This document shows, one piece after another, positions 3,149 through 52,453 of a DNA stretch of 64,000 bases. This DNA comes from Candidatus Latescibacterota bacterium (GTDB lineage Bacteria > Latescibacterota > UBA2968 > UBA8231): contig OY730476.1 in NCBI GenBank assembly GCA_963422735.1, positions 1,664,001 to 1,728,000 on the forward strand, read 5' to 3'. Both the position numbers and the translations under genes were made by a program. The number at the start of each line of letters is the position of its first letter. Position 1 is the stretch's first letter. The notes below the pieces were generated by a model. It had not been told where the DNA came from, did not search any database, and saw only the letters and a program-made list of their open reading frames with translations.

Positions 3149-6100
3149 CTAGCCAGCCGCGGCTTCCAATTCCTCTCCCTCAACCCGCACCGAAACGAGC
3201 TGAGAAACCCCTTCCTCGGGCATGGTGACGCCGTGTAGAGCGTCGGCCTCCGCCATGGTGATCTTATTGTGCGTCACGACGACGAATTGCGTCTCTCTGG
3301 CAAATTCCTTGAGTACGCGCACAAAGCGGTTGATGTTGGCGTCGTCAAGCGGGGCATCAACCTCGTCGAGGATGCAGAACGGGCTGGGCTTGACCTGGTA
3401 GATGGCAAAAAGGAGCGCGATGGCCGTCAGCGCCCGCTCGCCGCCCGATAGCAAGGCGATATTTTGCAGGCGCTTGCCGCGAGGGCGGGCGATGATGTCG
3501 ATATGGGCCTCTAGGGCGTCGACGTTTTCCTCGAGGCGGAGGTCGGCTTCGCCTCCGGGGAAGAAGTGGACAAAGGTCTCTTTGAATTTCTCGCGGATTT
3601 GCTCGAAAGATTTGAGGAACATCCGCCGGGCCGTGCGGTCGATAAGGCCGAGGGTCTTCTGTAGATCCGCGGCGGCTATCACTAGATCGTCGCGCTGTTG
3701 GCGGAGAAAGTCGTAGCGCTCTTTTTGTTCCTGATGTTCTTCCAATACGCCTAGGTGTACCGAGCCCAAGCGGTGTAGGGACTGACGCAGTTGGTCAATG
3801 CGCTGTTGCGTGGCTTCCTCGTCGATGGCTTCGTTGAGGGGGCCCATGGCCGCAACATCGCAGTGATACTCCTCCTGCAAGCGCGTGCGAATCTGCTGGG
3901 TCTGTAGCTGCAGCTCGGAGATGCGCACTTCGAGAGTCGTGCGGCGCTCGCGCTGGTCGTTGAGCTGCCGCTGCAAGTGGCTAATGTTTTCCTGCAACTC
4001 GCGGTTTTGGGTATTGGCTGCGGCCCAATGCTGGCGGCGCTGGTTTTGCTCCGCGGCCAAGGTCTCGCGGCCTTGGTGCAGCCCCTTGAGCTCGTCTGCC
4101 AAGGCGGTGCTGCGCGCACTGCACTCGGCCTGTTGGCACTCAGCCTCGGCCCCTTCAGCCGCTAGGCGCTCGATGTTATTGTTTAGGTTTGCGTCAATGT
4201 TTTTTAAACGATTGGCGTCTCGCTCTAGTCCTTGGACTATTTCGGCGGTGCGGGCGTGATCCACCTGGAGGGTGCCCAGTGCCTCGCGCTGCTCGCGCCG
4301 ATGGGTTTCGCTCTTTTTGAGGTTCTTTTCCAAGGCACTGCTTTCCTCGCTGAGGCGGGTGCTCTCGGCCTCGTTGTGGCGCAGGTACTCGGCTTGTTCG
4401 GCGATGCTTTGGTCGAGGGCCTGGCGGCGCTTGGCCAAGCTGGTGCTTTCGCTGTGGAGTTGCTTTAGGCGTGCTGCGAGCCGTTCGGCGTCAGCGCGTG
4501 CGCGTTGGTGCTGGTGGACCTGCTCGCGCTCCTTGGCGCGCCAAGTTTCGCTCTCGGCGGCTAGGCCCTCTAGGCGTTGTGTGAGCGCGGCGAGTTGCGC
4601 GGCGAGTGCGTCGAGCCGGGGGACGAGGGCTGTGCAGCGAGCGTTTTGGTGGGCGACGAGCGAGCGCAGGGTGCGGATTTCCCGCCTGCGGCCGAGGACT
4701 CCCGAGTCCTCGAATTGGCTCTGGCCGCCCGACGCGAGGCCAAAGAGATCGACAGCGTCGCCGTCGGGCGTGACACAGCGCACGTAGGCGCTCGGATAGC
4801 GGCGCGTCAGGGCCAACGCGGTTTGCAGGTCGTCCACTAGAAAGGTATTGTGCAAAAGGCCGGCAATCAGAGGGGCGATGGAGGCTTCGGGCCGCACGTA
4901 GTCCAGCAGCCGGCCGCGCAGCCTAGGCATGGGATCTGGGTCTAAGACCGGGCCGAGGGGGCGAGGAGGTGCCTCTAGCGAGAGAATGCCGACGCGCCCG
5001 GAACGCGCCCGGAGATGGGCAATGCCTTTGAGCAGGCCGCTGTCCGAGTGAGCGATCAATGCTTGGAGCGACTCGCCGAGGGCGACCTCGACCGCACGGG
5101 CGTGTTCTGCTCCGACTTCGACTAGGTCGCCAAGTACGCCGCGGAAGAGGGCGGCGTGGGGCGAGTCGAGCATCAAGGTGCGGACCCCGCTCTGATAGCC
5201 TTCGTAGCCGGCGCGGACTTTTTCGAGAACTTGGAGCCGTGCTTGGTTGGCCTCTGCGAGGCGTCGGGCCGCATCGCGTTGTTCGCCGAGGTCGCGGAAG
5301 GTCTTCTCGGTTTGGTCGCGGGCGGTGAGGGCGGCGGTGCGCTGTTGCTGGCAAGTGGATAGCTGCTGCCGAGTTTCGGCGAAGGCGGCTTCGGCCGCTG
5401 CGGCCGCTTGCAGGACTTGGTCGCGCTCGGCTGAGGTCGTGTCCTCTTCGCCGCGCATGGCAACCGCGCGTTCATCGAGCGCGTCGCGCTCGGCCTGTTG
5501 GCGCTCGAGCGCACGGCTTATTTCGCCCCCTTGGCGCAGGTGCTCCATGCGCCCGCGCTGGCGTTGGTCCAGCTCGGCTTGGTAGCTGGCATATTCCTCT
5601 TCGGCTTGGGTGGTGCGCTGCCGGTGAGCCTGCAATTCTCGCTCTATTTGCACAAAGGCCGCGCTCGCTTCGTCGCGGTGCGCGGCATTGTCGCGGTGCT
5701 GCTGCTGCACAGCTTCGAGCTGGCTACTGTAATCGGCGCGTTCGCGGGCCGTGCGTTCGCGGATTTGTTCGGCCGCCTCGCGCCGCTCGCGCACGGCCAC
5801 GAAGAGCTGTTCGCGCTCGTGGATGGCCTCGATGCGGCGATTGAGTTCAAGGCCCGCTTCCTGCATAGCCTTCTCGGCCTCGGTCAGCGCGAGGCGCACC
5901 TTTTCGAGCTCGGCCTCGCGGCTGGTGAAGCGGGTATAGCCTTCTTCGGCCGCCTTGCTGAGTGCTGCGAATTCGTCTTGCAGCGGGGATATTTGGGCAC
6001 TGAGAGCGAAGAAGCGCTGGCCCCCCAAGCGCACGTCGAGTTGGTCCAACTCCTCTTTGAGTTCGCGGTATCGGCGCGCCCGGCCAACTTGGCGGCCGAG

Positions 6101-39140: not shown

Positions 39141-40274
39141 TCAGTTGACCCCCTGCATGAGGCGTTGGGTGATGGAGCCTTCCTGGGTCAGGGCATAGAC
39201 GATCACGTTGACCGCCATCTGATTGTAGCGCGGGTTGCTGCCCCAGCCTACGTTGTCGATGCCGACCATCCGGCCGCGAATGAAGTACCCGTTGACGATG
39301 TCCCTCCAGTCAACTTGGCCTCCAGTACCGCCTTTCAGCGCGAAAAAAGCATTGAAAATGGGATGGTCCAAGGGTAAGCGTTCTTTCCAGAAATCGTACC
39401 CGTCCACTAAGCCGCCGTACTTTACCAAGGCTTCGCGGTGGTAGCCTCCCAAAACGAAGCCCCCAGACAGCATATAGCGAGCGTAGTTTTCCATCTCGAT
39501 CTCGTTGAGGGAGCCTTGAGGGATGAGAATCGGCAGTTCGAGTAGGCGTCTGTCGTCGTAGGTGATCGTGCCGATAAACTTAGCTTCGAGTCCGGTGTAC
39601 TCATTGATGACGTCGCACAAGGCGTCGATTGAGCGCAGATTCAAATTGCCGTAGCCCTGTATTTGACCGGTAACAGCGCGGGCCGAAATCACATGGGCTA
39701 TTTTGATGAAGCCCTTGACCGCTTGGGGATCGCTGACGTTCTGGATGACCATGGCCCGGTAGCGGCCGGTATCCATGCTATTGACATCGAGCATCTCCAA
39801 GGCCATGTCGATTTTGTGCTCCGGCATCCGCGTGCTGGTCACCGAGGTGGAGACGAGCTTGGGCTCGAGTACAAAGCTGTTTGCGGTACTAGCGGTAATC
39901 GGCTTGAACAAGCCAATACCCGAGTTGCCGACGTGGCTGGAAATCAACGAGCGAACATTGAAGTGGGTCGTGGCCTGCACTTGATCTAGGCGGGCGGCGG
40001 CCAAGTGGACTTGGTGGCGGGCTAGTTGGCGCTTGAGCTTGGGGATTTTGCGCAGTTCTAAGGGCTTGGTCAAGCGGGGCTCGCGCTTGATGAATTTGGT
40101 ACTGAGAGGCCGGGAGGCTTTGGTTTCGACTTGTTGGAAGGGGTTGAGAGCGACGAAGACCGACGTGAGGGCGATGGCTAGCACCAAGGACAGGAAAAGG
40201 CCTCGGTACTGGCGACGGACCAATTCGGCGAGGTCAAAACCGGAAGCAGGGGAAACGAAACGGGAAGAACTCAT
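39141..40274 (-). CDS. DUF4159-domain membrane-anchored protein
   Basis: N-terminal TM; DTGRYRAMV; YMLSGGF; HPIFNAFF; NVIVYALT. Confidence 0.75.
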   Translation of the reverse strand: MSSSRFVSPASGFDLAELVRRQYRGLFLSLVLAIALTSVFVALNPFQQVETKASRPLSTKFIKREPRLTKPLELRKIPKLKRQLARHQVHLAAARLDQVQATTHFNVRSLISSHVGNSGIGLFKPITASTANSFVLEPKLVSTSVTSTRMPEHKIDMALEMLDVNSMDTGRYRAMVIQNVSDPQAVKGFIKIAHVISARAVTGQIQGYGNLNLRSIDALCDVINEYTGLEAKFIGTITYDDRRLLELPILIPQGSLNEIEMENYARYMLSGGFVLGGYHREALVKYGGLVDGYDFWKERLPLDHPIFNAFFALKGGTGGQVDWRDIVNGYFIRGRMVGIDNVGWGSNPRYNQMAVNVIVYALTQEGSITQRLMQGVN

Positions 40275-41914: not shown

Positions 41915-44536
41915 TCAAGTATTGAGTCGAAGGTCTTCTTCTCTCTCCTTTTTGCGGAATGGAATGCCGAGTTTCCGCAGCCGGCTGCGCAGCGTGTTGG
42001 GATGGATGCCGAGCAAGTGGGCCGCTCCTCGTGGGCCGTAAATGACCCCGTTGGTGTGGGCCAACACGCAGGTCAGGTATTCGCGCAAGTGGTCCTCAAG
42101 CGGCACAATGGCGAAGGCGCCTTCGATCGGATGGCATCTGGCCGCGCCTATACCTTGAGCAAAGTGATCCGGCTCGATAGGGCCTCGATGGGCCACTAGG
42201 ACGGCGCGCTGAACAACGTGTTCCAACTGGCGCACATTGCCCGGCCAGTCGTAGGCTTGCAGTGCTTCTATCCCGGCGGAACTGATGGGCGCGGAAGGCT
42301 GGTTCGGTTGGACCGCAAACTGCGTGGCAAAATACTCAGCAAGCAGCGGGATATCTTCCGGGCGTTCTTTCAGGGGGGGAATACGGATAGAATAGCCTTC
42401 GAGCCGGTAGAACAGGTCGGCGCGGAAGGTCCCGCTGACGACGGCCTGCTCGAGGTCGTCGTGGGTCGCAGCGATGACGCGAACATCAACGGGGATGGCT
42501 TGGTTGCCGCCGACTCTGTAGATCTGTTGTTCCTGTAGTACTTCCAGCAAGTTCGCCTGCACATCGAGGGTGAGATCGCCGATTTCATCGAGGAACAGGG
42601 TACCTTGGTCGGCCCGTTCAAATTTGCCTATGTGGCGGTCATGCGCCCCGGTAAAGGCTCCTTTTTCGTGGCCGAATAACTCGTTGTTGACCAGCTCGCG
42701 CTGAAGTGTGCCGCAGTTGACGGAGACAAACGGCGCAGCTCGGCGCGCGCTCAACTCGTGGATCGCTTGGGCGGCGAGGCTCTTGCCGGTGCCGGTTTCG
42801 CCGAGTAAGAGCACCGTCAAATCCGTCTCGGCCGCCTTGAGGAGATGGGCATCCACTTGGCGTATAACTTGGCTCTGGCCTACGAACCAGCGTTTCAGTA
42901 CGTCCATGCGGGTGTCTTCGGTGATCTCAAACTGAACCCTAGCTTGGTCGGAATAGGTGAGGTCCCGATCTATGGCTTGGAGGCAAAACGTATAAGTCCC
43001 CGGCTGAAGTGGCGGGTATTCCACTTGAGTCTCGGCCGTCTGCCGCCACTCCGACTCTAGGCCGTCAAGGCGGTAGCGGTAGCTCAGATGAGATGGGTGA
43101 TCAAGTGGGCTGGTGCCCTCAAAGTGGATGCGGACGCGATCCGCCGTACCGGGCAAGCGAATCGCTTGGTCGGCGACGACCTCATAGACTGCATCGGCCT
43201 CTAGGCTCACGATGGTCGCTTGTGGGGGTATGCGTTGGGGTGTGTACCGCACTAAGGCACCTTTGGTCACCAGATAGAGCGCACCGTCGCGGTCTTCAGC
43301 GAGAGCACGGACGGTGTTGCACAAGGAGAGTTCAGGCACCTCGACATTTTGGAAGACTTGGTCGTCGTAGCCGCACAGCCCGCGGCCTTCGGTGCCCATC
43401 CACAGCCGCCCGTCGCGGGCTTGGATGACGCTGGTGACGGTATCGCACGGCAGCCCGTCGCCCCGGGTGAAATGACGGATTCGACCCTCTTTTAAACACA
43501 ACAATCCTTGGTTGGTCCCTATCCACAGCCGCCCGTCGCCCCCCTCGTACAGGGCAAATACCAAACAGGCGGGCACGGCATCTACTTTTGCACACGTGGT
43601 GCCGTCGAAGCGGTACAGCCCGTGCTCTTCATCCGCAGAGTTCGACCCCAACCATAGATGCCCTTGACGACTCCAAGCGAGGACATCAATCTGAAGGGGA
43701 GTCGCTCGCCCGAACCAGCGAACCTGCCCGTCCTCGACATAGCCGAACCCGCCTCCGTGCTGATAGGCAAACCAGACCCGGCCGTATTCATCTATAGTAA
43801 TAGCCGAAATGGCGTCCGGCGACGCGGGTTGGTGCATTAATTTTATCTGCCGGGCGTCGTAGTCGTAACAATATAGGCCCGTGCCGGTTTCCCCAAACCA
43901 TACGCAGCCGTCCCGATCTAGGCATAGTGCCGTGATCTCTTGGCATCCGGGGATGGCTACGTTCTCGGCACGGCTCCAATGGGTGTCAAAACGGACGAGT
44001 CCGCCTTCGGTGCTGGTCCACAAAGGGTCGGCATTGCTCTGGGCGATGCAGGTAAGACCTGTCGCTGGCAGCCCGTGGTCGGGGCCGAAGACTTGCAGGC
44101 GTTGGCTGTCGTAGCAGTATAGGCCCCTATCGCGAGTTCCCACCCAGAGCCGCCCGAGGCGATCCACGCACAAACCCCGCGAGAAAGAGAGGTCGCCCCG
44201 GTGCGCGAAGTCCATTCGCTCGGCATCGCAACAGGCCAATGCGCCCTCGTAGGCGGTCAGATAGATAGTCTCTGAACGAGGATCCGCCTCAATGGCAAGG
44301 AAGTGAAGCTGGCGACTAGGCTCCAGCAGGCGGAAATCCTGGCCATCGAATACAAAGACGCCGACACTGGTGGCCAGCCAAAGGGTGCCGTCTGATCGGG
44401 CCAACAAGCCCGTCACCTCTGCATTGGGAGCCACCTCGTTAAATCGCGCATGTCTATGGGGTATGTCACTCATGCGGTTGTAGGAGTACAGGCTGCGACC
44501 ACCGCACCAGATAGTCCCCTGAGTGTCGATAGCCAA
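41915..44536 (-). CDS. sigma54-dependent activator with Reg_prop beta-propeller and Y_Y_Y sensor domains, possibly 5'-truncated
   Basis: Repeated 'D..G.LW.GT...GL' blades; YRYRLDG...LQPGTYTF; [27 protein letters not shown]; Fis-type HTH. Confidence 0.9.
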
Positions 44537-44578: not shown

Positions 44579-45004
44579 GGCGATGAGTCTGAGGTGCTAT
44601 GGGTCGTCTCTTGGGGGATGCTTTTCCTCTACAATATCATCCAGCGCCTAGCCCCTCGATCCTTCGTACAGGCGATGCCTATTCGGGCGTTGCGCGAAGG
44701 CATGGTGCCGCGTCTAGCGATCTACGCGGAGGATAAAGCGGGGGAATATCGTTGTGGCGCAGCGGTCGGGCAAAGGCAGGACGTGCTGTGTTATGCCGGC
44801 CGGCCGTTGACGAAGGGGCAAGTGCGGACGTTGCACGAAAAATCAGCGGGCGGTTCTTTCGCGCCATTTGGCCATGAGTTGGAAGTTGAACTAGCCGTAC
44901 CGTTCGCGCCCATAATCGCAGCCGCTGGGGTGCTGACCGTGGTCTTGGGCGGCAGTCTGATCAAACCCCTGATACAGCTATTCTCTCCTTGGCTGCCGTC
45001 TTAG
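44579..45004 (+). pseudogene. C-terminal part of an A24 (FlaK/prepilin-peptidase-like) membrane protein
   Basis: LREGMV...PLTKGQVRTL...VPFAPIIAAAGVLT pattern; no catalytic N-terminal half and no RBS. Confidence 0.5.
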
Positions 45005-45014
45005 TGGGGGACCT

Positions 45015-45638
45015 ATGAATCGGGATAGAAAAGACCCTGTAACGATGGCCTTTGGCGTCTTGTTGGTTGTGTTGCTGCCGACCTTTTTCCTGTTGGCGAG
45101 CCACTATCAGTCGCTAGACGAGCGCGTACGGCAGTTGCAGCCAAAGCCCTTGGTGCCCGCGCCTTCACCCGAGGCCCTGTTGGCGCAAGTGAGCCACGTC
45201 GCATCCGACCGTACGCTCCAACTCCAACAGGTATGGGCCGCCGAGCCGGAACCGGCTTCTGGCCTAGTGGCCGACTACACCGTCATGCGCGGCGACGAGG
45301 CGGTCTATCGGCTGGTGCTGTTCCGCTACGATATCGCTTGTAGTGTGTGCCGGGACGTGCTGGCCGCCGCGCTGTACGATGCCGAAGGCGACGCGCTGGT
45401 GCAGATATTCCTGCTCGACGATTGGGAGGTGCGCGGCGAGCGGGTTGATACCGCGCAATTTTTGCGCCAATTCGCCGGTCGCCCGGTGGCGGAGGAACTG
45501 GCTCTTGAGTCCAATGTCGATGGGATCAGCGGGGCCACGTTTTCAACCGGGGGTCTTGTCGAACAGCTCAACACCGCGGCGGCGTGGGTGCGAGAGCATC
45601 CGCTGGGGACGCCCGCAAGCGAGGAGGAACGACTGTGA
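45015..45638 (+). CDS. membrane-anchored FMN-binding domain protein with a CxxC motif
   Basis: N-terminal TM; CSVC; FLRQFAG; flavinylation-type motif VDGISGATFS. Confidence 0.85.
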   Translation: MNRDRKDPVTMAFGVLLVVLLPTFFLLASHYQSLDERVRQLQPKPLVPAPSPEALLAQVSHVASDRTLQLQQVWAAEPEPASGLVADYTVMRGDEAVYRLVLFRYDIACSVCRDVLAAALYDAEGDALVQIFLLDDWEVRGERVDTAQFLRQFAGRPVAEELALESNVDGISGATFSTGGLVEQLNTAAAWVREHPLGTPASEEERL

Positions 45639-46174
45639 ACGATCTCAAACCCAATCGCTGGGCTACGACCTTGATCGTGGCCACGGGTCTCCTGTTGGGA
45701 GCCTGTACCTTCTTGGCGGCCAAGATCGTCAACCCGCCTCCTATTGATCCGCTGGATGTGGAGTTTTGGGATTTGCTGGGTACGCAAGCGGCCGTACTGG
45801 AACTAGAGAGTCTGGCGGGTACGGGCAAGGTTTCCAACGCGCAATTTGCGGACGCGCCCTATCTGCTCATCTTCGCCGACCCGACTTGCAGTGCCTGCGA
45901 GACGATCTATCCGCACCTGCTGCGCGCCTCGCAGGTGCAGAGGGTGAAGGTCCTGTTCATTGCCTCGGGTGACCGGCAGGCGATGCAAGACAAAATGGAG
46001 GAACACAGTTTTTCGTTTCCCGTCGCCTTTGATTCCCTGTTGACGGCTAATAAGCCCTTTGCGGTAACTGCTTTTCCCACCTCCGTATGGGTCGATGCCG
46101 AAGGCAACATTGCCAAAGCCGCCACCGGCGTCCAAGGTGCCGCCGTCGTAATACACTTGGCTGGAGGGGCCTGA
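45635..46174 (+). CDS. TlpA/redoxin-family thioredoxin-fold protein
   Basis: N-terminal TM; CSAC; FSFPVAFD; AFPT..VD.EG; GTG start overlaps the previous stop. Confidence 0.85.
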   Translation: MNDLKPNRWATTLIVATGLLLGACTFLAAKIVNPPPIDPLDVEFWDLLGTQAAVLELESLAGTGKVSNAQFADAPYLLIFADPTCSACETIYPHLLRASQVQRVKVLFIASGDRQAMQDKMEEHSFSFPVAFDSLLTANKPFAVTAFPTSVWVDAEGNIAKAATGVQGAAVVIHLAGGA

Positions 46175-46182
46175 AAGGATGA

Positions 46183-46740
46183 ATGCGCCATGCAGTTTGT
46201 AACGCTCTTGGGTCGTCCGGTAGTCTGGACGATGGTAGCCTGTGCCGCGGTCGTGCTCTTTTTGATGTTGTGCCCTTCTTCGTCGGCCCTCTCTCCGGTG
46301 GTCTGGACCGCGCCCTCGGCCAATCCGCTATCCGAGGTGCTGCGCCCGATTTCGCTTTGCCGACCGTGCAGGGCGGCACGATGGCACTCAGCACGTTGCG
46401 GGGAAAGTCCGCCCTGCTCGCCTTTGTTACGGCGGAATGTCCGTATTGTCAAAAGTTAAAAAAGAAACTCGAAGCCTTTGCACTGGATGCAGACCACCAA
46501 CTCGTCTTCATCTGCACCGGGGAAGAGGGGGCTCGGAAGATCCGCGAGACTTATTCCTTTACGTACCCGGTGTTGATCGACTCGGCTGGTGCCGTCTCAC
46601 AGGCGTACAAAACCCCCGGGGTGCTTGCGGTGTATCAGATCGATACCGCGGGGAAGGTGGTGGACTTGGTGGTGGGGTGGCCGCCGGCTTGGGAGTTTGT
46701 CCGGGGTTTTGGCCGATCCCAGCCTAGCGAAGGCTCTTGA
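46183..46740 (+). CDS. second TlpA/redoxin-family protein; the N-terminal anchor appears out of frame
   Basis: APDFALP, CPYC, YPVLID. The hydrophobic anchor is encoded in the 46190 frame. Confidence 0.75.
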   Translation: MRHAVCNALGSSGSLDDGSLCRGRALFDVVPFFVGPLSGGLDRALGQSAIRGAAPDFALPTVQGGTMALSTLRGKSALLAFVTAECPYCQKLKKKLEAFALDADHQLVFICTGEEGARKIRETYSFTYPVLIDSAGAVSQAYKTPGVLAVYQIDTAGKVVDLVVGWPPAWEFVRGFGRSQPSEGS

Positions 46741-46788
46741 GGCGATTTGTTCAATCACCCCTACGGCCCAGAAAGGAGGTGCTATTAC

Positions 46789-46872
46789 ATGCTCGTAGGT
46801 TTGATTCCCAGTCAGCAACCACAACGGTTTGCTGATCCTTTTTCTACCCTTTTGAGGAGGATTTCGTTATGA
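46789..46872 (+). CDS. 27-aa small ORF coupled to the peptide gene
   Basis: AAAGGAGGT lies 8 nt before ATG; MLVGLIPSQQPQRFADPFSTLLRRISL*; ATGA overlap with 46869. Confidence 0.45.
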   Translation: MLVGLIPSQQPQRFADPFSTLLRRISL

Positions 46873-47216
46873 AGTCTTTGCCTTTGTTCTTGCAGTCGGC
46901 GCTGCTGCTGCCGCTGCTGGCCCCGCTGGTCGAGTTCGTTACCTCGCCCAGCGGCCACGTCGAGCCGCGCCAAGGGTTGGCGATGGGGTGGTTGGGTAGC
47001 GTGGTGGCGGGTCTGGCCGTGGTATTCGGCACGGCTGACCAAGGGCAGGCCGATTCCTGCCACGGAATAGCCAAAGGTTCGACCGGACAGATCTGCAGAA
47101 CTGACATCCCATGCGCTTGGGATCACGATGGAACGCCCAGAGGGTGGGCGCAGGTCACATACTATCACGACAGTGCGTTAGGCTGTCTATGGAAGAATGC
47201 GTCCTGCACCTGCTGA
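46869..47216 (+). CDS. secreted six-cysteine peptide precursor
   Basis: GAGGAGG RBS; hydrophobic leader ending GQA; 54-aa core with 6 Cys ending CTC. Confidence 0.8.
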   Translation: MKSLPLFLQSALLLPLLAPLVEFVTSPSGHVEPRQGLAMGWLGSVVAGLAVVFGTADQGQADSCHGIAKGSTGQICRTDIPCAWDHDGTPRGWAQVTYYHDSALGCLWKNASCTC

Positions 47217-47223
47217 GACGTAT

Positions 47224-47262
47224 AGCCAATATGGCACTTTAGGGCCGGGTGCCATATTGGCT
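47224..47262 (+). terminator. perfect 14-bp hairpin after the peptide gene
   Basis: AGCCAATATGGCAC-N11-GTGCCATATTGGCT followed by T-rich sequence. Confidence 0.7.
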
Positions 47263-47352
47263 GGTTGTCTTCTGTTCTACTGATCCTGTTGGGCAAATAG
47301 AGTAGGGTATTAGACCCGCTACGTATCCACCCACTACCTCTGGAGATGAACG

Positions 47353-49497
47353 ATGCGCTGCTTGCTCATAGCAATTTTGTTGTTGGCGGTTCCGTTGGGA
47401 GCCTGCGCCTTAACGTGGGATTTTACCGAAGGCACCACTTGGGGCTGGACCGCCCAAGAGAGTTTTTTGTCTAGGGATGGTACTATCACCACGGTGTCCA
47501 GCGAAGTCGAAGACGGCGTTTGGCGCATTGCTCCGGTGCCTAACGCGCAACGACCGGCCATTCAATTGCGCTCGCCGCCGATTGGGGAAGACTCCGCCCT
47601 ATTCGACTGGGTCACCCTACGGCTGCGCATCGCACATGATCGCCCCACTAGGGGAAACCTTCTGATGCAGTGGTTCAATCCCGAATACAGACGCCGCAAG
47701 GAGAAATTGGGCCAATTCGGACTACTAGGTGCCCTGACGAGCGTTAGTACGGGACGTTCTCAAATCTATCCCACGGAATGGGAAAACATCACGATAGATA
47801 TACGCGCTTTGGAAGCCGCTGCGGAAGCGAACCCAGCAGAGGAGATCGTTTGGCATGACACCCTCTTCTACTTCTATATAGAACTGAATTTAAACATCGA
47901 TGCGTCGGGCCCGGCCGATCATCCGGCCTTTGTCGAAGTGGACTGGATTCAACTGACGGGAGCTGAAGAGTTGCTGCTGGGAGAATTGCAGCCCCGGGAG
48001 ATCCCAGTAGAGGCCGGATTGCCCGGCGAGTTATTTGCCGCGCCCGATTTTTTTTCCCTCGGCGAGGGTATTGAGATAGTATCCTCTCCGCTATTATCGT
48101 CAAGTGCTTTGGGGGATGTGGATGGCGATGGGGATGTGGACCTCGTGGTGACTTGGGAGCGTAAAGCGGACGGTAGAGTAAGCTCAGGTTGGCAGGTAGC
48201 GTCCAACGACGGTTTGGGTGGCTTTGTGACCACCCAAGAGGTTCGCCGTCCAACAAGCCAAGACGAGTGGCTCGCTCTAGGCATAGCGGGGGGTGATTTC
48301 GGCGGAGATGGGCTGCTCGATCTGGCCTTTCGTGAAGGTCAGACCATTGAATTGTGGCTCAACCGGGGCGAGGATGGCTTTGAAACGATCCTACAGCTAT
48401 CCGACGTCCGTTTCCTTGGCTTGGCCGATGGCGACGGCGATGGCGATGTGGACCTGTTGGGTGTGGAGGAAGGCGACACTGAGTACAACGTAATTATATG
48501 GTTCAACGACGGGGCCTCTGGGTTTGTCCGCAGTGATCGGTTTACCCTCGACGGCGAGGAGGAGCTCTTTCCTTTTCTGTTGGCTGGTCAACCGTTGGGC
48601 GAGGCCGTGCGCCTGTTGTGGAACCGAGTGTGCTACGAGCCTTGGGGGCCTTGGCACCTGACCCGGCCGTGGTCGGCTAGCGAGCCGCCGCTGTTTTTTG
48701 AGGCAGAAGTAAACCCCTGTGACCTGCACCTGTTCACCGACCTTGATGGCGATAGAGCGGTTGAGTTCGTCGGGACTCCCAAGCGGGATCTACAATTCGA
48801 TCCTTTTTACGCTGGCATTACCTATCACGGTTTGGCGCTGTGGCGGGTGGACGCCTTGGGCAGGGTGGAACGCCACACTCTGCTCGGTCCGCAGGTGCGC
48901 GTACCGCATCGGGCCATTGCCAGCGACCTCAACGGCGATGGCCTGCTGGACTTGGCCATCGTCGATGGCAACTTGGTGACCGGGCCGGCACTGGTGGTGC
49001 TGGTCGGTCAGCGCGATGGGGTGCCCATCGTCGAAGGGCGCTACCGGCTGCCGGGCACGGGCGGCGAGGTACTGGCCGGCGATGTAAACGGCGATGGGGC
49101 GACCGATTTGGTGGTGCTGGGAAGGAGTGTGGAAGGCGGTCCGGGCGGGGCCTTCGTCTTCATCAACCAAGGCGTCCCGGCCACAGCCATCGCGGTCGAG
49201 ACGGCGGCCACGCCCTCAACCGTTGCCCTCGGTGCCAACTATCCTAATCCATTCAACCCGGCTACGACCATCCCCTTGGCCGTGCCCGCCCAAGCCGGGG
49301 GCGTGGATTTAACGATCTACAACACATTGGGTCAGCCAGTGCGCCACGTATGGAACGGTCCGTTGGCGGCGGGCGAGCACCGGCTAACTTGGGATGGCCG
49401 GGACGCACAGGGCCAGCCCGTCGCTGCTGGGGTCTATTTGTATCGGTTGCAGGTGGACGACCAGACGCGCATCCGCAAGATGGTCAAACTCGAATAG
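47353..49497 (+). CDS. secreted FG-GAP repeat protein with a C-terminal FlgD-Ig (secretion-tail-like) domain
   Basis: Signal peptide; multiple GDxDGDGxxDL repeats; NYPNPFNP.T.I...WDGRD..G..VAAGVY. Confidence 0.92.
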   Translation: MRCLLIAILLLAVPLGACALTWDFTEGTTWGWTAQESFLSRDGTITTVSSEVEDGVWRIAPVPNAQRPAIQLRSPPIGEDSALFDWVTLRLRIAHDRPTRGNLLMQWFNPEYRRRKEKLGQFGLLGALTSVSTGRSQIYPTEWENITIDIRALEAAAEANPAEEIVWHDTLFYFYIELNLNIDASGPADHPAFVEVDWIQLTGAEELLLGELQPREIPVEAGLPGELFAAPDFFSLGEGIEIVSSPLLSSSALGDVDGDGDVDLVVTWERKADGRVSSGWQVASNDGLGGFVTTQEVRRPTSQDEWLALGIAGGDFGGDGLLDLAFREGQTIELWLNRGEDGFETILQLSDVRFLGLADGDGDGDVDLLGVEEGDTEYNVIIWFNDGASGFVRSDRFTLDGEEELFPFLLAGQPLGEAVRLLWNRVCYEPWGPWHLTRPWSASEPPLFFEAEVNPCDLHLFTDLDGDRAVEFVGTPKRDLQFDPFYAGITYHGLALWRVDALGRVERHTLLGPQVRVPHRAIASDLNGDGLLDLAIVDGNLVTGPALVVLVGQRDGVPIVEGRYRLPGTGGEVLAGDVNGDGATDLVVLGRSVEGGPGGAFVFINQGVPATAIAVETAATPSTVALGANYPNPFNPATTIPLAVPAQAGGVDLTIYNTLGQPVRHVWNGPLAAGEHRLTWDGRDAQGQPVAAGVYLYRLQVDDQTRIRKMVKLE

Positions 49498-49518: not shown

Positions 49519-50019
49519 ATGCTGGAGAAATTGCGCCAACACATAGCGGGTGGTTTGCAGCATTTGAGCGTCCGTCTGCAACGGGCCGGCACGGTCGAGG
49601 GCCTGCCGCGCCACGAGTGCCCCGTCCTGATCTTTTTCCACGGTTACAGCTTGGCTCACACCATCCGGCCTCTGGTCGTGGGACGAGCGCTGCGAGCGCG
49701 CGGCTACCCCGTAGAATTCGCAGGCGTAGGGCCTCATACCGCCCGGATCGCCGCCGAAGGATTTCAAGTGTACGCGGTAGAAACCATGCCGCAAAGCCGC
49801 ATGGACGAGTACGTAGCCCGCAGCGACTATGGCTATTACAATGCAGAGTGGATAGAGTGCTGTGTACAAGCCGAATGTGCGCTCATCCGGCGGCTCCGTC
49901 CCGCCCTCGCGCTGGCAGACCTGCGGCCCACCTTGCGGCTCACTGCTTCTCTTGAGGGAGTGGATATAGCGGGGATACCGATATGGTTGCGGGAAGGACC
50001 GTCACCTCTATGGCGATAG
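49519..50019 (+). pseudogene. N-terminal fragment of a GT1/GT28-like glycosyltransferase
   Basis: LAHTIRPLVVGRALRARGYPVEFAG; truncated. Confidence 0.7.
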
Positions 50020-50387
50020 GCTCTGTGCTCACCGGGCTGGACCTTTTAATCAACCCCGGAGACGGCGTCTTGGACAAGGTTGCGTGGTATGAAAGGGTGT
50101 ACGTGCAACAGGATGTGGTATTTTCCGACCTCAATGAAGATGGTCTGTTGGCCGCCGTGTTTGTCGATCGCAATTTTCGCCAGCCGGCACTCGTCGTCAG
50201 TGTGGGCAGAAAGAATGGTGTGCCACTCCGGGAGGGCCACTATCCACTGCAAGGGTTGGGCGGGACGGTCATAAGCGGCGATGTGGATGGAGACGGTGAT
50301 ATAGACTTGGCCGTGCTGGAGCATGCCGTGCGCGGTGGGGGCAGTGGTATATACATCCTGTCCAACCAGACAAAAACGGACGATTAA
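49983..50387 (+). pseudogene. FG-GAP repeat protein fragment (paralog of 47353..49497)
   Basis: SDLNEDGLL, PALVVSVG..GVPL.EG.Y.L.G.GG, GDVDGDGDIDL. Confidence 0.8.
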
Positions 50388-50573: not shown

Positions 50574-51897
50574 ATGAGACGGCCATGGAAAGTACCGTTC
50601 CGAAAAAATAGAAAACTGCAAAGCTGCTTGGCGTTGTCGCTGGCCTTGCATCTGCTGGTGATGTTCGGCATCACGCACCGCGAGCGGGTTACTCAATTTC
50701 CCGTCCTCCCGCCGATCATGGTGGAGTTTACCAAACGGCCGCCGCCGCAACGCACGCTCACCCGCCGGCAACGGCCTCGCCAACGGCCCTTGGTGCGCCG
50801 TCCAGCACTCCAAGCCGCCCCGGTCGCCGCGGTGCGCCCGGCTCCCTCGGCGGCGCACCCGCCGCCGGTGTTCAAGTCATCGGCTCCTCGGCTGCCGACG
50901 GCGTCGCTGCCGGAGCAGCTAATGTTGCCCATCCCGGATTTCCCCGCTCGGCACATTGGTCCGCACCTGCACGTTGGGGCGTTGGAAGGGACGCGGCAGG
51001 GGCGGATGAGATTGACTTGTCCTTGGAGTTGATGGATGTGCAGGCGATGGACACCGGGCGGCACCGGGCGATGGTCGTAGTCGATCCAAACGATCGGCGC
51101 AAGCTCAAGGGCTTTCTCTATTTGTCCAATGTTTACAGCCCTTCTATTGAACGGGCTGAACAGGAAACATCACGCCGACTTTGGCAGACGCGCCAGCACT
51201 TTGGCAGACGCGCCAAATGCAAGAAAAACGGATGCTGCAAGGGTTGGCCGATAAGATGGTCGCCAGTACGCAGGTTCACGTCGAAGTACGCGACGCGGTC
51301 GCACTCGACGACCCGCAGCTTTTGCAGGTGCCCTTCGTGCTGCTGACGGCGAGTGCTCCCTTTGAGTTTACCGAGGCTGAGGCGGCCAATTTAGGGGCGT
51401 ATTTGACTTCGGGCGGCTTCCTGTTTGCGGAGATCGTGCGCGATTTGCGGCCCGATTACAGCTATGCCGAATTGGACATTCCCGCGGTGCGTTCCCTGAT
51501 TCGGCATAGCTTGCAGGTGGTGGGCTATCAAGAATGGAAGGACTGGCAGTTTACCCGTCTAGAGATAACCCATCCGATCTATCATTGCTTCTACGATATG
51601 TGCAGCCTCCCACGGGGGATGCGCGATATGCACTATGTAGGATCTCCGCCGCTAACTCCTGACTATTTGGAGGGCATAGTAGTAGGGGAACAGTTGGTGG
51701 GGGTGTATTCGATGCGCGGCTACGCCGACTTCTGGTCGGGAATCGGCCAGCAGGAGTGGGAGGCATTTGATGTGGTCAATAGTCCGTTTCTGTCCAGTGC
51801 CGAGGAGCCGTTGGTGTATAATTTGGGGGTGAATATCGTGGTGTACGCGTTGACGCGGGAAGGGTCATTGGCGCGGCAATTAGTCGATGCGGACTGA
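50574..51897 (+). pseudogene. DUF4159-domain protein split over three frames (paralog of 39141..40274)
   Basis: TM SLALHLL; LELMDVQAMDTGRHRAMV; YLTSGGF, HPIYHCFY, NIVVYALTREGS. Confidence 0.8.
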
Positions 51898-52084
51898 GGG
51901 ATGTTGTGTCGTGATACTACGTGATACTATAAACTGAGGAGGGCACTGCGAGGTATGGAAATCATTCTGTTAATTGATGAACGCAACGTTGCGATCCAGA
52001 GTGCGCGGGTCACACAAAATCGCGATGTACGCACCCAAGCGAAGGCTTGTCTCCTTTTGGGCCGTTCTACATGTGGCCCCAGTA

Positions 52085-52392
52085 CGGCCACCGCTATCGC
52101 GGCCGAGACGGCGACCACCCCCTCCAGGTGCCAACTATCCTAATCCGTTCAACCCGGCCACGACCATCCCCTTGGCCGTGCCCGCCCAAGCCGGGGATGT
52201 GGACTTAACGATCTACAACGTCTTGGGGCAGCCGGTGCGCCACGTGTGGGCAGGTTCGCTGGCGGCGGGCGGGCACCGACTGGCGTGGGATGGCCGAGAC
52301 GCGCAGGGTCAACCCGTCGCCGCTGGAGTCTATTTGTATCAGTTGCAGGTGGGCAACCAGACGCGCATCCGCAAGAGGGTCAAACTTGAATA
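52085..52392 (+). pseudogene. orphan FlgD-Ig tail fragment
   Basis: GANYPNPFNPATTIPL...RKRVKLE, nearly identical to the end of 47353..49497. Confidence 0.85.
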
Positions 52393-52453
52393 TGACGGCC
52401 GCCAATGCCGACCGGGATGATGAGCGAACCGTCGCGCAATTGTTCAATGGCAT

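Follow-up and report, generated by a model that had tools for sequence, protein, structure and literature searches.

A hypervariable cysteine-rich peptide family of Latescibacterota with a conserved two-part leader and a putative prepilin-type peptidase partner

INTRODUCTION

Bacterial type IV pilins carry Glu at position +5 of the mature protein, as part of the class III signal rule. Precursors of conotoxins and of other venom or defense peptides combine a near-invariant pre-region with a hypervariable mature part held in a fixed Cys frame. Disulfide-containing class II bacteriocins have dedicated thiol-disulfide oxidoreductase accessory genes, and cargo of the type IX secretion system (T9SS) must be free in the periplasm. 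Here, we describe the gene of a Cys-rich peptide precursor (46869..47216, + strand) in a stretch of 64,000 nucleotides, referred to as the window, from “Candidatus Latescibacterota bacterium” (assembly GCA_963422735.1, contig OY730476.1, positions 1,664,001 to 1,728,000). In its homologues the leader is near-frozen and the core hypervariable, which supports the view, put forward in an earlier sequence-only reading, that the gene encodes a true peptide precursor whose leader is bipartite.

No published description of such a family or module was found in full-text searches of the open literature, supplements excepted, and the combination of a hypervariable Cys peptide, a conserved two-part leader, and its own pilin-type peptidase appears to be undescribed. 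According to two published sources, small secreted CXC proteins (DUF4266) occur in flavinylation/thioredoxin-like clusters (Meheust et al. 2021, PMC8238504), and some Latescibacterota are sponge associated (PMC12993501).

RESULTS AND DISCUSSION

Precursor layout and family

The gene encodes 115 residues, exactly the sequence quoted in the sequence-only reading, and follows the ribosome-binding site (RBS) GAGGAGG (46854-46860), located 8 nt before the ATG. Its 54-residue core (DSCHG...SCTC) has three Trp, a terminal CxC, and six Cys (C64, C76, C82, C106, C113, and C115). The 115-residue open reading frame (ORF), RBS, six-Cys core, terminal CxC, and 14-bp stem noted in that reading were all confirmed on the sequence. 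We divide the precursor into three parts. Residues 1 to 36 (46869..46976, + strand) form a near-invariant N-region ending in R34-Q-G36, which we propose as a cytoplasmic piece removed by an A24 peptidase. Residues 37 to 61 (46977..47051, + strand) comprise a hydrophobic segment and an AxA-type c-region ending in G-Q-A61. The mature six-Cys domain, residues 62 to 115 plus the stop codon (47052..47216, + strand), is marked out by its AlphaFold2 confidence, its Cys pairing statistics, and its hypervariability. Because homologues have Leu at the position of M39, this residue is not a conserved alternative start, and we take the long leader to be real.

A word-indexed search of 5.8 billion proteins retrieved 174 homologues at an E value of ≤1, nearly all of them from metagenome-assembled genomes of “Candidatus Latescibacterota.” The best 120 of these 174 (E values from 2.6e-56 to 7e-24) were nearly all 106 to 122 residues long, with 52 to 78% identity and a query coverage of 83 to 100%, and their sole annotation was “hypothetical protein.” When 1.84 billion cluster representatives were searched with a profile, 95 proteins scored at an E value of ≤1e-3 and 45 of these at ≤1e-10. 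A scan of a genome collection found 21 loci, 18 of them in metagenome-assembled genomes of “Candidatus Latescibacterota”/Latescibacteria and one under a Gemmatimonadota label; the remaining two, weak matches in Aeromicrobium (loci L025 and L026), had only the hydrophobic word GWLGSVVAGLA in common with the peptide and were dropped as unrelated. Across 168 species genomes of the phylum, the family was present in 30 (28 of the 75 genomes of one family and 20 of the 30 of one genus), with up to 20 matches per genome. The genome under study has four copies, namely, the one at 46869..47216 (type A) and three of type B at C1:341-361 kb, which resemble the type A copy in the leader only.

The precursor matched no Pfam family at an E value of ≤0.01 and no NCBIfam model. 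The Pfam scan returned neither PF14086 (DUF4266) nor DUF3570, the TIGR04183 and PF18962 sorting domains had no match in the 115 residues (Pfam and NCBIfam), and a search of the ESM Atlas with the core gave no usable match. That the ORF might be part of some larger known protein, an outcome that the sequence-only reading had named as damaging to it, did not prove true: no longer relatives were found apart from 10 proteins, 219 to 290 residues in length, with an added T9SS C-terminal domain (CTD), PF13860 in all of them and PF18962 also in 2. Two metagenomic ORFs were chimeric. In P0126, the middle of the peptidase A24x (see below) is joined straight to the peptide leader, and in P0166 the end of a leader and a Cys core follow on the N-terminal A24 domain; both look like deletion products inside the operon or assembly artifacts.

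Frozen leader and hypervariable core

Residue and Cys counts were taken from a type A alignment of 119 sequences. The first 61 residues were nearly frozen, with M1, L20, F23, S26, S28, E32, P33, R34, G36, G40, W41, S44, G48, and L49 invariant and most other positions at least 90% conserved, and the last ca. 54 residues had few conserved positions apart from Cys. Nei-Gojobori counts over 22 type A genes (231 pairs; the frameshifted copy L024_7965 was left out) gave a median ratio of nonsynonymous to synonymous substitutions (dN/dS) of 0.16 in the leader. For the cores of young paralogues (loci L021 and L010), the paired values of pN and pS were 0.245/0.245, 0.337/0.205, and 0.320/0.244, with pN equal to or above pS in every pair; the FG-GAP genes adjoining these peptide genes had pN/pS ratios of 0.3 to 0.65.

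Among the paralogues of one genome (loci L007, L009, and L016), pS was 0.02 to 0.04 in the leader versus 0.66 to 0.81 in the core. Since leader pS was so far below core pS, the leader is also homogenized at the DNA level, by gene conversion or cassette exchange. Such homogenization cannot account for the leader motif being invariant across type A, type B, and distant genera.

In its frozen pre-region, its tandem amplification, and a mature dN/dS near or over 1, the family is like conotoxin precursors. It differs in being bacterial, in its unrelated fold and Cys pattern, and in the accompanying A24 peptidase and periplasmic thioredoxins, and no similarity to conotoxins was seen by sequence or structure (Foldseek, VIA, and ESM Atlas).

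Cysteine frame and fold of the core

Four Cys (C64, C82, C106, and C113) were present in 117 to 118 of the 119 sequences (at least 98%). The other two, C76 and C115, occurred together in 79 sequences and were jointly missing from 38; the 2 discordant sequences had a Cys displaced by a few columns. An extra pair, formed by one Cys in an inserted loop and another at position 99, was present together in 20 sequences and absent together in 99, with no discordant case; all of these pair counts come from related sequences and are not independent events. The 111 mature parts that could be parsed had six Cys (55 sequences), four (30), eight (17), or an odd number or two (9). As C76 and C115 come and go together, we take them to form a disulfide, and the distribution supports the view that the six Cys behave as disulfide partners that would be gained and lost pairwise. 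The sequence-only reading had staked itself on conserved Cys positions in homologues, and in this it was borne out by the four near-constant Cys and by the covariation of C76 with C115.

AlphaFold2 modeled the core (residues ca. 61 to 115) as an all-beta structure without helix, with predicted local distance difference test (pLDDT) values of 87 to 96 and three long strands (72-84, 90-101, and 105-112). Against the PDB, Foldseek gave no match to the peptide model at an E value of ≤0.001; the top row was laterosporulin3 (6lwy), with an E value of 1.1, TM scores of 0.25/0.50, and a VIA Z score of 2.3, and an exhaustive VIA-align run over 48,161 chains reached a best Z score of 2.8. No known fold was thus recognized for the modeled core, which does not prove that the fold is new: of the suggestion that it may be, the lack of a significant PDB match by Foldseek or VIA speaks in favor, and newness as such is unproven. 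The CxxxC spacing of CS-alpha-beta defensins does not occur in the peptide sequence. The proposals of a defensin- or knottin-like effector and of a metal-binding miniprotein found no support, the best fold match being the laterosporulin3 row.

Two putative cleavage sites in the leader

The leader has a class III-like layout, in which P-R-Q-G36 precedes the hydrophobic stretch L37-G54 and W41 lies at +5. It has Gly at −1, a basic residue before it, and about 20 hydrophobic residues after it. G36 and W41 were invariant in alignments A2 and A3, to which no picking rule applied. An S-G anchor stood at a fixed spacing in 88 of the 95 cluster representatives, and these had G/A/S at −1 in 86 cases, Leu at +1 in 66, Trp at +5 in 61, and Arg at −3 in 54, counts that lean toward G/A/S and Trp because the picking rule rewarded them. 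The sequence-only reading had offered two explanations for PRQG. As a class III (prepilin-type) site, it gains from the invariance of G36 and W41 and from the A24 leader peptidase that heads the operon of relatives. As a degenerate twin-arginine translocation (Tat) motif, it fails: S/T-R-R-x-F-L-K is not there, P-R-Q-G-L has one Arg in place of twin arginines, and that single Arg varies in the wider family (R in 54 of the 88 representatives).

A Pro/Gly-containing c-region ends in A/V-x-A 25 residues after G36, and Asp and the first Cys come next (in this copy, T-A-D-Q-G-Q-A61 / D62; AQA, AEA, ADA, and similar in relatives). By inspection, peptides of type A, type B, and the distant loci all retain the AxA-type motif, and the signal peptidase I (SPase I)-like GQA site proposed earlier is thus conserved as a motif over the superfamily. 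Relatives of 200 to 330 residues in several genomes have the same leader, then one to three Cys domains, and then a T9SS CTD. These natural fusions place the Cys domain outside the cytoplasm and also indicate that the AxA site is used. The peptide in the window differs from such T9SS type A cargo in ending at CxC without a CTD. We infer that the leader may contain two sites, one for a cut by A24x on the cytoplasmic side and one for SPase I on the periplasmic side.

Linkage to an A24-family peptidase module

In relatives, the operon includes a ca. 381-residue polytopic membrane protein of the A24 family, which we call A24x. Its scores against Pfam Peptidase_A24 were 28.4 bits at locus L006 and 30.0 bits in the type B cluster of the genome under study (cut-off, 26.5). 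D33, within D-x5-[IV]PN, and G92-D93-x-K95 were invariant in seven A24x sequences at 29 to 40% identity; we take the D-x5-[IV]PN and GxGD motifs to hold the A24 catalytic residues. A peptidase with both catalytic Asp is thus encoded in relatives and in the type B cluster, and its catalytic half has been lost beside 46869..47216. The protein also carries a C-terminal extension of ca. 130 residues.

In 9 of 19 close loci, the genes for a flavin mononucleotide (FMN)-binding protein, two TlpA-like proteins (Tlp1 and Tlp2), and the peptide had an A24x gene, full or near-full, directly upstream; A24x was cut by a contig end in 2 and reduced to short pieces in 2, and the 6 loci without a match were either short contigs or arrays lying farther downstream in the same genomes. 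The order FMN-binding protein-Tlp1-Tlp2-A24x-peptide was seen at five distant loci, which come from four genomes in three further genera (one of them outside the family) and have one to three peptide genes and no FG-GAP gene in the fetched stretches. There, A24x identity was 29 to 36%, and the peptides shared the leader motif and the C-terminal CxC only. This distant linkage argues that the conserved unit consists of A24 peptidase, flavoprotein, two TlpA-like thioredoxins, and peptide. At one of these loci (L035, 8154-9137 and 9235-11559), which belongs to the genome from another family, a MacB/FtsX-type ATP-binding cassette (ABC) permease comes after three tandem peptide genes and might serve in export or immunity in that genome.

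Over the 168 genomes of the phylum, peptide and A24x occurred together in 25, the peptide alone in 5 (G120, G134, G137, G141, and G165, two of which are 75 to 83% complete), A24x alone in 5, and neither in 133. The T2SSE/PilB assembly ATPase had no match in the genome under study (one contig, 95% complete), versus 13 of 14 control genomes with matches, and it was absent from 20 of the 24 genomes of family f1 that carry both peptide and A24x. The only full-length A24 gene of the genome under study is the one in the type B cluster. Since most carriers have no pilus machine and A24x stands beside peptide genes, A24x would most simply process these peptides, and it probably serves them.

The same data bear on a pilin-like alternative, in which the precursor has a class III signal only, is cut at G36, and keeps its hydrophobic segment as a membrane anchor for a disulfide-stapled beta head. 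Gly at −1, the basic residue at −3, the hydrophobic stretch, the conserved +5 position, and the dedicated A24 peptidase all fit this alternative, and a small C-terminal beta sheet with disulfides recalls the heads of pilins. We consider it unlikely, given the missing assembly ATPase in the genome itself and in 20 of 24 carriers, the lack of Glu at +5, the AlphaFold2 model without an N-terminal helix, the conserved AxA motif, and the T9SS CTD fusions, which could not leave the inner membrane with an uncleaved anchor. Type IV prepilins and their A24 peptidases (PilD/TadV/FlaK type) are therefore a partial parallel. They share with the peptide system a dedicated GxGD peptidase with both catalytic motifs and a Gly-ended leader after a basic residue, with a hydrophobic stretch and a conserved +5. 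The peptide system differs from them in the Trp at +5, the second AxA site, the long, conserved 36-residue leader, the lack of an assembly ATPase in most carriers, the A24x extension, and a cargo that is a Cys-rich minidomain able to bear a T9SS CTD.

In the window, the FMN-binding protein is membrane anchored (45015..45638, + strand) and has a subthreshold match to Pfam FMN_bind (E value, 0.0022; 19 bits against a cut-off of 22); it has an SGAT flavinylation-type motif (DGISGATFS) and a weak RnfG-like NCBIfam match. Its gene stands beside Tlp1 and Tlp2 in 12 close and 5 distant loci. Tlp1 (45584..46174, + strand) is a TlpA/ResA-like thiol-disulfide oxidoreductase with CSAC and an N-terminal membrane anchor (Pfam AhpC-TSA, 2.5e-07, and Redoxin; NCBIfam MauD/ResA-like matches under their cut-offs), and Tlp2 (46190..46740, + strand) is TlpA-like with CPYC (AhpC-TSA, 7.1e-15).

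Such neighbors raise the question of whether the peptide is itself a redox or metal-handling part of the FMN/thioredoxin module, for example, a CxC thiol relay or a metal chaperone. The C-terminal CxC is widespread in the superfamily, and the small secreted CXC proteins (DUF4266) mentioned above also occur in flavinylation/thioredoxin clusters, as described in PMC8238504. We regard this role as highly improbable, since the CxC and its partner Cys are missing together in 30 of 111 homologues, the peptide has no Pfam match to DUF4266, and hypervariability, up to 20 matches per genome, and pN at or above pS are unlike a housekeeping carrier. Compared with the DUF4266/DUF3570 flavinylation clusters, the module differs by its A24 peptidase and by its hypervariable, multicopy peptide.

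A conserved leader followed by a variable core would also suit a ribosomally synthesized and posttranslationally modified peptide (RiPP) whose core is modified further, for example, by thioether or radical SAM chemistry, and a six-Cys core recalls SCIFF/ranthipeptides. No radical SAM, LanM, YcaO, or other RiPP enzyme was found among the scanned neighbors in the window, the type B cluster, or the distant loci, so that the conserved module, close or distant, lacks one; T9SS CTDs occur fused to tandem copies of the domain, and AlphaFold2 models it with confidence as a small protein. The probability we give to a RiPP precursor is close to negligible. Disulfide class II bacteriocins and laterosporulin are alike in having a leader, thioredoxin-like helpers in the operon, and several disulfides; unlike them, the peptide has neither a double-glycine leader nor an immunity gene, and the conserved module contains no ABC/C39 exporter. 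The peptide falls outside the pilins (no Glu at +5 and no assembly ATPase), Tat substrates, T9SS cargo (this copy being without a CTD), known RiPP classes (no modifying enzyme), and DUF4266.

Proposed maturation pathway

We propose the following pathway, which on balance we consider slightly more likely than not. Where the locus is intact, the genes of the A24 peptidase, the FMN-binding protein, Tlp1, Tlp2, and one or more peptides would be driven as an operon from a sigma-54 promoter, with an enhancer-binding protein (EBP) of the propeller type. The precursor would insert into the inner membrane through residues 37 to 56 with its N terminus inside, and A24x, as a GxGD aspartyl peptidase, would cut after G36 and free a 36-residue cytoplasmic piece, as gene linkage and the class III-like motif suggest. 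The two TlpA-like oxidoreductases and the flavoprotein would then assist in forming three disulfides in the periplasmic 54-residue domain; covariation points to C76-C115, and the other two bonds would lie among C64, C82, C106, and C113. An SPase I-type cut after A-x-A (G-Q-A61), suggested by the motif and by the relatives with T9SS CTDs, would free the domain, which may then serve beyond the cytoplasm as a hypervariable effector in binding or antagonism. Within this genus, the domain is genetically paired with an FG-GAP/carbohydrate-binding module (CBM)-like T9SS cargo protein.

Taken jointly with this whole pathway, the description of the precursor as a lineage-specific, fast-evolving, disulfide-stapled, secreted miniprotein of Latescibacterota stands, in our judgment, somewhat above even. 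The role of the mature domain is a guess, held with far less confidence than the pathway: hypervariability, amplification, and secretion lead us to favor an effector in binding or antagonism, such as a bacteriocin-like, inhibitor-like, or recognition-related one.

Several observations weigh against the pathway. Two cleavage sites in one leader are unusual, and plain Sec/SPase I export would suffice. The Glu expected at +5 of pilins is Trp here, the AlphaFold2 model of the leader has pLDDT values of <50 and no helix, and the Pfam scores of A24x are barely over the cut-off. The link between peptidase and substrate draws on neighborhood and motif; in the co-occurrence profile, 10 of the 168 genomes were discordant, and related genomes are not independent. 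The median dN/dS of the core was 0.54, a value from the 175 of 231 pairs in which dS was estimable and largely saturated. The local operon is damaged as well: A24x has lost residues 1 to 236, including the catalytic half; between 44537 and 45004, the sigma-54 promoter/upstream activating sequence region of relatives is gone, so that the activator gene on the other strand abuts the A24x remnant; no sigma-54 promoter was found near the window operon within two mismatches or by a GG-N10-GC scan; and a 16-nt deletion in Tlp2 (at ca. 46340, relative to L006 and L021) puts the thioredoxin domain out of frame with its signal anchor.

A rival account is that of an ordinary Sec-exported, SPase I-cleaved Cys-rich peptide, periplasmic or secreted, with the A24-like protein serving another job or substrate and the leader kept by gene conversion. 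The AxA site and its Pro/Gly c-region are conserved throughout, CTD-fused forms need a cleavable signal, the low leader pS and high core pS of same-genome paralogues are what gene conversion gives, and the peptide in the window is intact even though the local A24 domain is gone. We consider this account rather unlikely, because gene conversion cannot explain the invariance of G36 and W41 across type A, type B, and distant genera at 30 to 35% identity, because A24x and peptide co-occur (25/5/5/133) and adjoin in distant lineages, and because A24x has no other obvious substrate, most carriers being without a type IV filament ATPase.

If the proposed pathway is true, bacterial A24 prepilin peptidases have a class of substrates outside type IV filaments, a bacterial gene family follows the evolutionary logic of animal venom and defense peptides with its leader in concerted evolution, and a periplasmic flavin/thioredoxin module is dedicated to the oxidative folding of one client family. 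The family offers a compact, confidently modeled beta scaffold of ca. 50 residues with natural diversity, of possible interest for peptide engineering, and a way into the interactions of uncultured Latescibacterota with their environment.

State of the copy in the window

The A24x remnant (orf136; 44594..45004, + strand) consists of the C-terminal 136 residues and was recognized by tblastn with the 381-residue protein of L006, whose match on the window was confined to query residues 237-373 (residues 288-422 of the open frame); the remnant itself had no Pfam or NCBIfam match. In Tlp2, relatives read through in one frame in the nucleotide alignment. The frame of the signal anchor starts at 46190, and the open frame of the ORF listed from 46183 is fortuitous over its first ca. 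50 codons. The 16-nt deletion is also present in the contig of another run, which is perhaps not independent. The peptide ORF, its RBS, the 5′ leader, and the 3′ hairpin are intact.

With half of A24x and the promoter deleted and Tlp2 frameshifted, the local peptide copy may be unprocessed or silent. An intact A24x-Tlp pair lies 1.36 Mb away in the type B cluster, and processing of the local precursor, if it occurs, would depend on this paralogous A24x/Tlp cluster at C1:348 kb.

The FG-GAP partner and other neighbors

Downstream of the peptide lies the gene of a 714-residue partner protein (47353..49497, + strand) with a signal peptide, a CBM-like jelly roll, an FG-GAP beta-propeller, and a T9SS type A CTD (Pfam FG-GAP_3 and FlgD_ig; TIGR04183 at 34 bits, cut-off 23). 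The model of its N-terminal domain had a predicted TM score of 0.71 and matched CBM11 in Foldseek (E value, 3.3e-05; TM scores, 0.46/0.59). The genome has 49 CTD matches, and SprA and PorU score over their cut-offs. Peptide and FG-GAP genes alternate in tandem arrays at type A and type B loci, which suggests a functional link between them. As distant modules do without it, the FG-GAP partner appears to be an add-on outside the core system. Complex predictions for FG-GAP residues 20-625 with core residues 62-115 scored 0.00, 0.73, and 0.00, which speaks neither for nor against contact between the two.

Farther downstream, orf166 (49519-50019), one of a set of 153- to 166-residue ORFs, had no Pfam or NCBIfam match; it closes the array in 13 loci of relatives at 81 to 90% identity. 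Fragments of FG-GAP genes were also seen at 49983-50387. A frameshifted remnant of a peptide-CTD fusion lies at 51955-52420, with the linker ...STCGPSTATAIAAETATTPS in one frame and the T9SS CTD (GANYPNPFNP...KLE) in another. DUF4159 proteins are encoded near type A loci (51181-51897 and 39141-40274) and type B loci (L031, 17244-18581; L032, 5591-6931) of the genome under study; in the type B cluster, these genes stand with those of a tetratricopeptide repeat protein, a transglutaminase-like protein, and a family 2 glycosyltransferase.

RNA elements and regulation

The peptide gene is preceded by a 5′ leader RNA of ca. 100 nt (46762..46868, + strand), which has an invariant AGAAAGGAGG box, a hairpin (46811-46836), and then the RBS. 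Twelve pairs were predicted in the hairpin, four of them with compensatory changes over 20 aligned copies. A GTG or ATG usually follows the box after 7 to 9 nt, and a U-rich run lies after the hairpin, just before the RBS. An upstream ORF after the AGGAGG box (27 residues, its stop overlapping the ATG) was rejected, as its frame was not conserved in 23 copies, and for that reason we treat the 5′ leader as an RNA element. It had no Rfam match and could be an attenuator or a translated mini-ORF.

Between the peptide and FG-GAP genes lies a 3′ stem-loop of 17 bp with a U-rich tail (47223..47263, + strand), in which a perfect 14-bp stem is formed by 47224-47237 and 47249-47262. Its folding energy was −33.4 kcal/mol (z score, −3.59), none of 200 shuffles folded as well, and 17 aligned copies showed compensatory changes in 7 of 16 pairs. 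This terminator-like hairpin, to which the sequence-only reading had drawn attention, is therefore real, being more than chance and conserved with covariation, and it is compatible with different mRNA levels of the peptide and FG-GAP genes. One contig of another run (X1), which might be of RNA, spans the hairpin (47133-47358). An Rfam mir-4861 row on it was spurious (28 bits versus a gathering score of 100), and an integron attC-like reading, made by eye only, was set aside, with no GTT/AAC core ends and no integrase seen.

Upstream, on the opposite strand, is the gene of a sigma-54 EBP (41915..44536, − strand) with Pfam Sigma54_activat (5.9e-66), a Reg_prop beta-propeller (7.8e-33), and a Y_Y_Y sensor (1.6e-13) and no visible transmembrane segment. 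EBPs of this type also head the type B cluster and many loci of relatives. Of the 9 loci in which A24x is full or near-full, 8 had a match of 11 to 12 out of 12 to the sigma-54 consensus TGGCACG-N4-TTGCW at 56 to 114 nt upstream of that gene. Stand-alone peptide genes have a sigma-54 promoter ca. 145 nt upstream, with 12/12 matches at L009 and L016 and 12/12, 11/12, and 10/12 at the type B copies of the genome under study.

Messengers derived from signal peptides are known from other systems, and here the 36-residue N-terminal piece might itself be a product, an export reporter released into the cytoplasm by the A24 peptidase, which would act like a signal peptide peptidase, and sensed by the propeller of the EBP in a feedback loop. 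Residues 1 to 36 are near-invariant under strong purifying selection, an EBP with Reg_prop/Y_Y_Y and no visible transmembrane segment heads type A and type B loci, and sigma-54 promoters drive the operons. The idea is pure inference, and the distant modules L033-L037 showed no EBP in the fetched flanks; we deem it quite improbable. Similarly doubtful, with only a slim chance of being right, is the most far-reaching combination, namely, a new maturation system in which an A24 peptidase recruited from pili and a two-site leader would yield both a conotoxin-like effector of new fold and a 36-residue messenger sensed by the sigma-54 activator, coupling secretion to transcription.

At L006, a perfect sigma-54 promoter (TGGCACGGGATTTGCA, ca. 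4925-4940) is preceded, at a distance of ca. 130 nt, by three tandem units of ca. 21 nt with the palindrome ATACG-N6-CGTAT (4745-4805), which are likely candidates for the binding site of the propeller-type activator. At L010, a different repeat occupies the same place.

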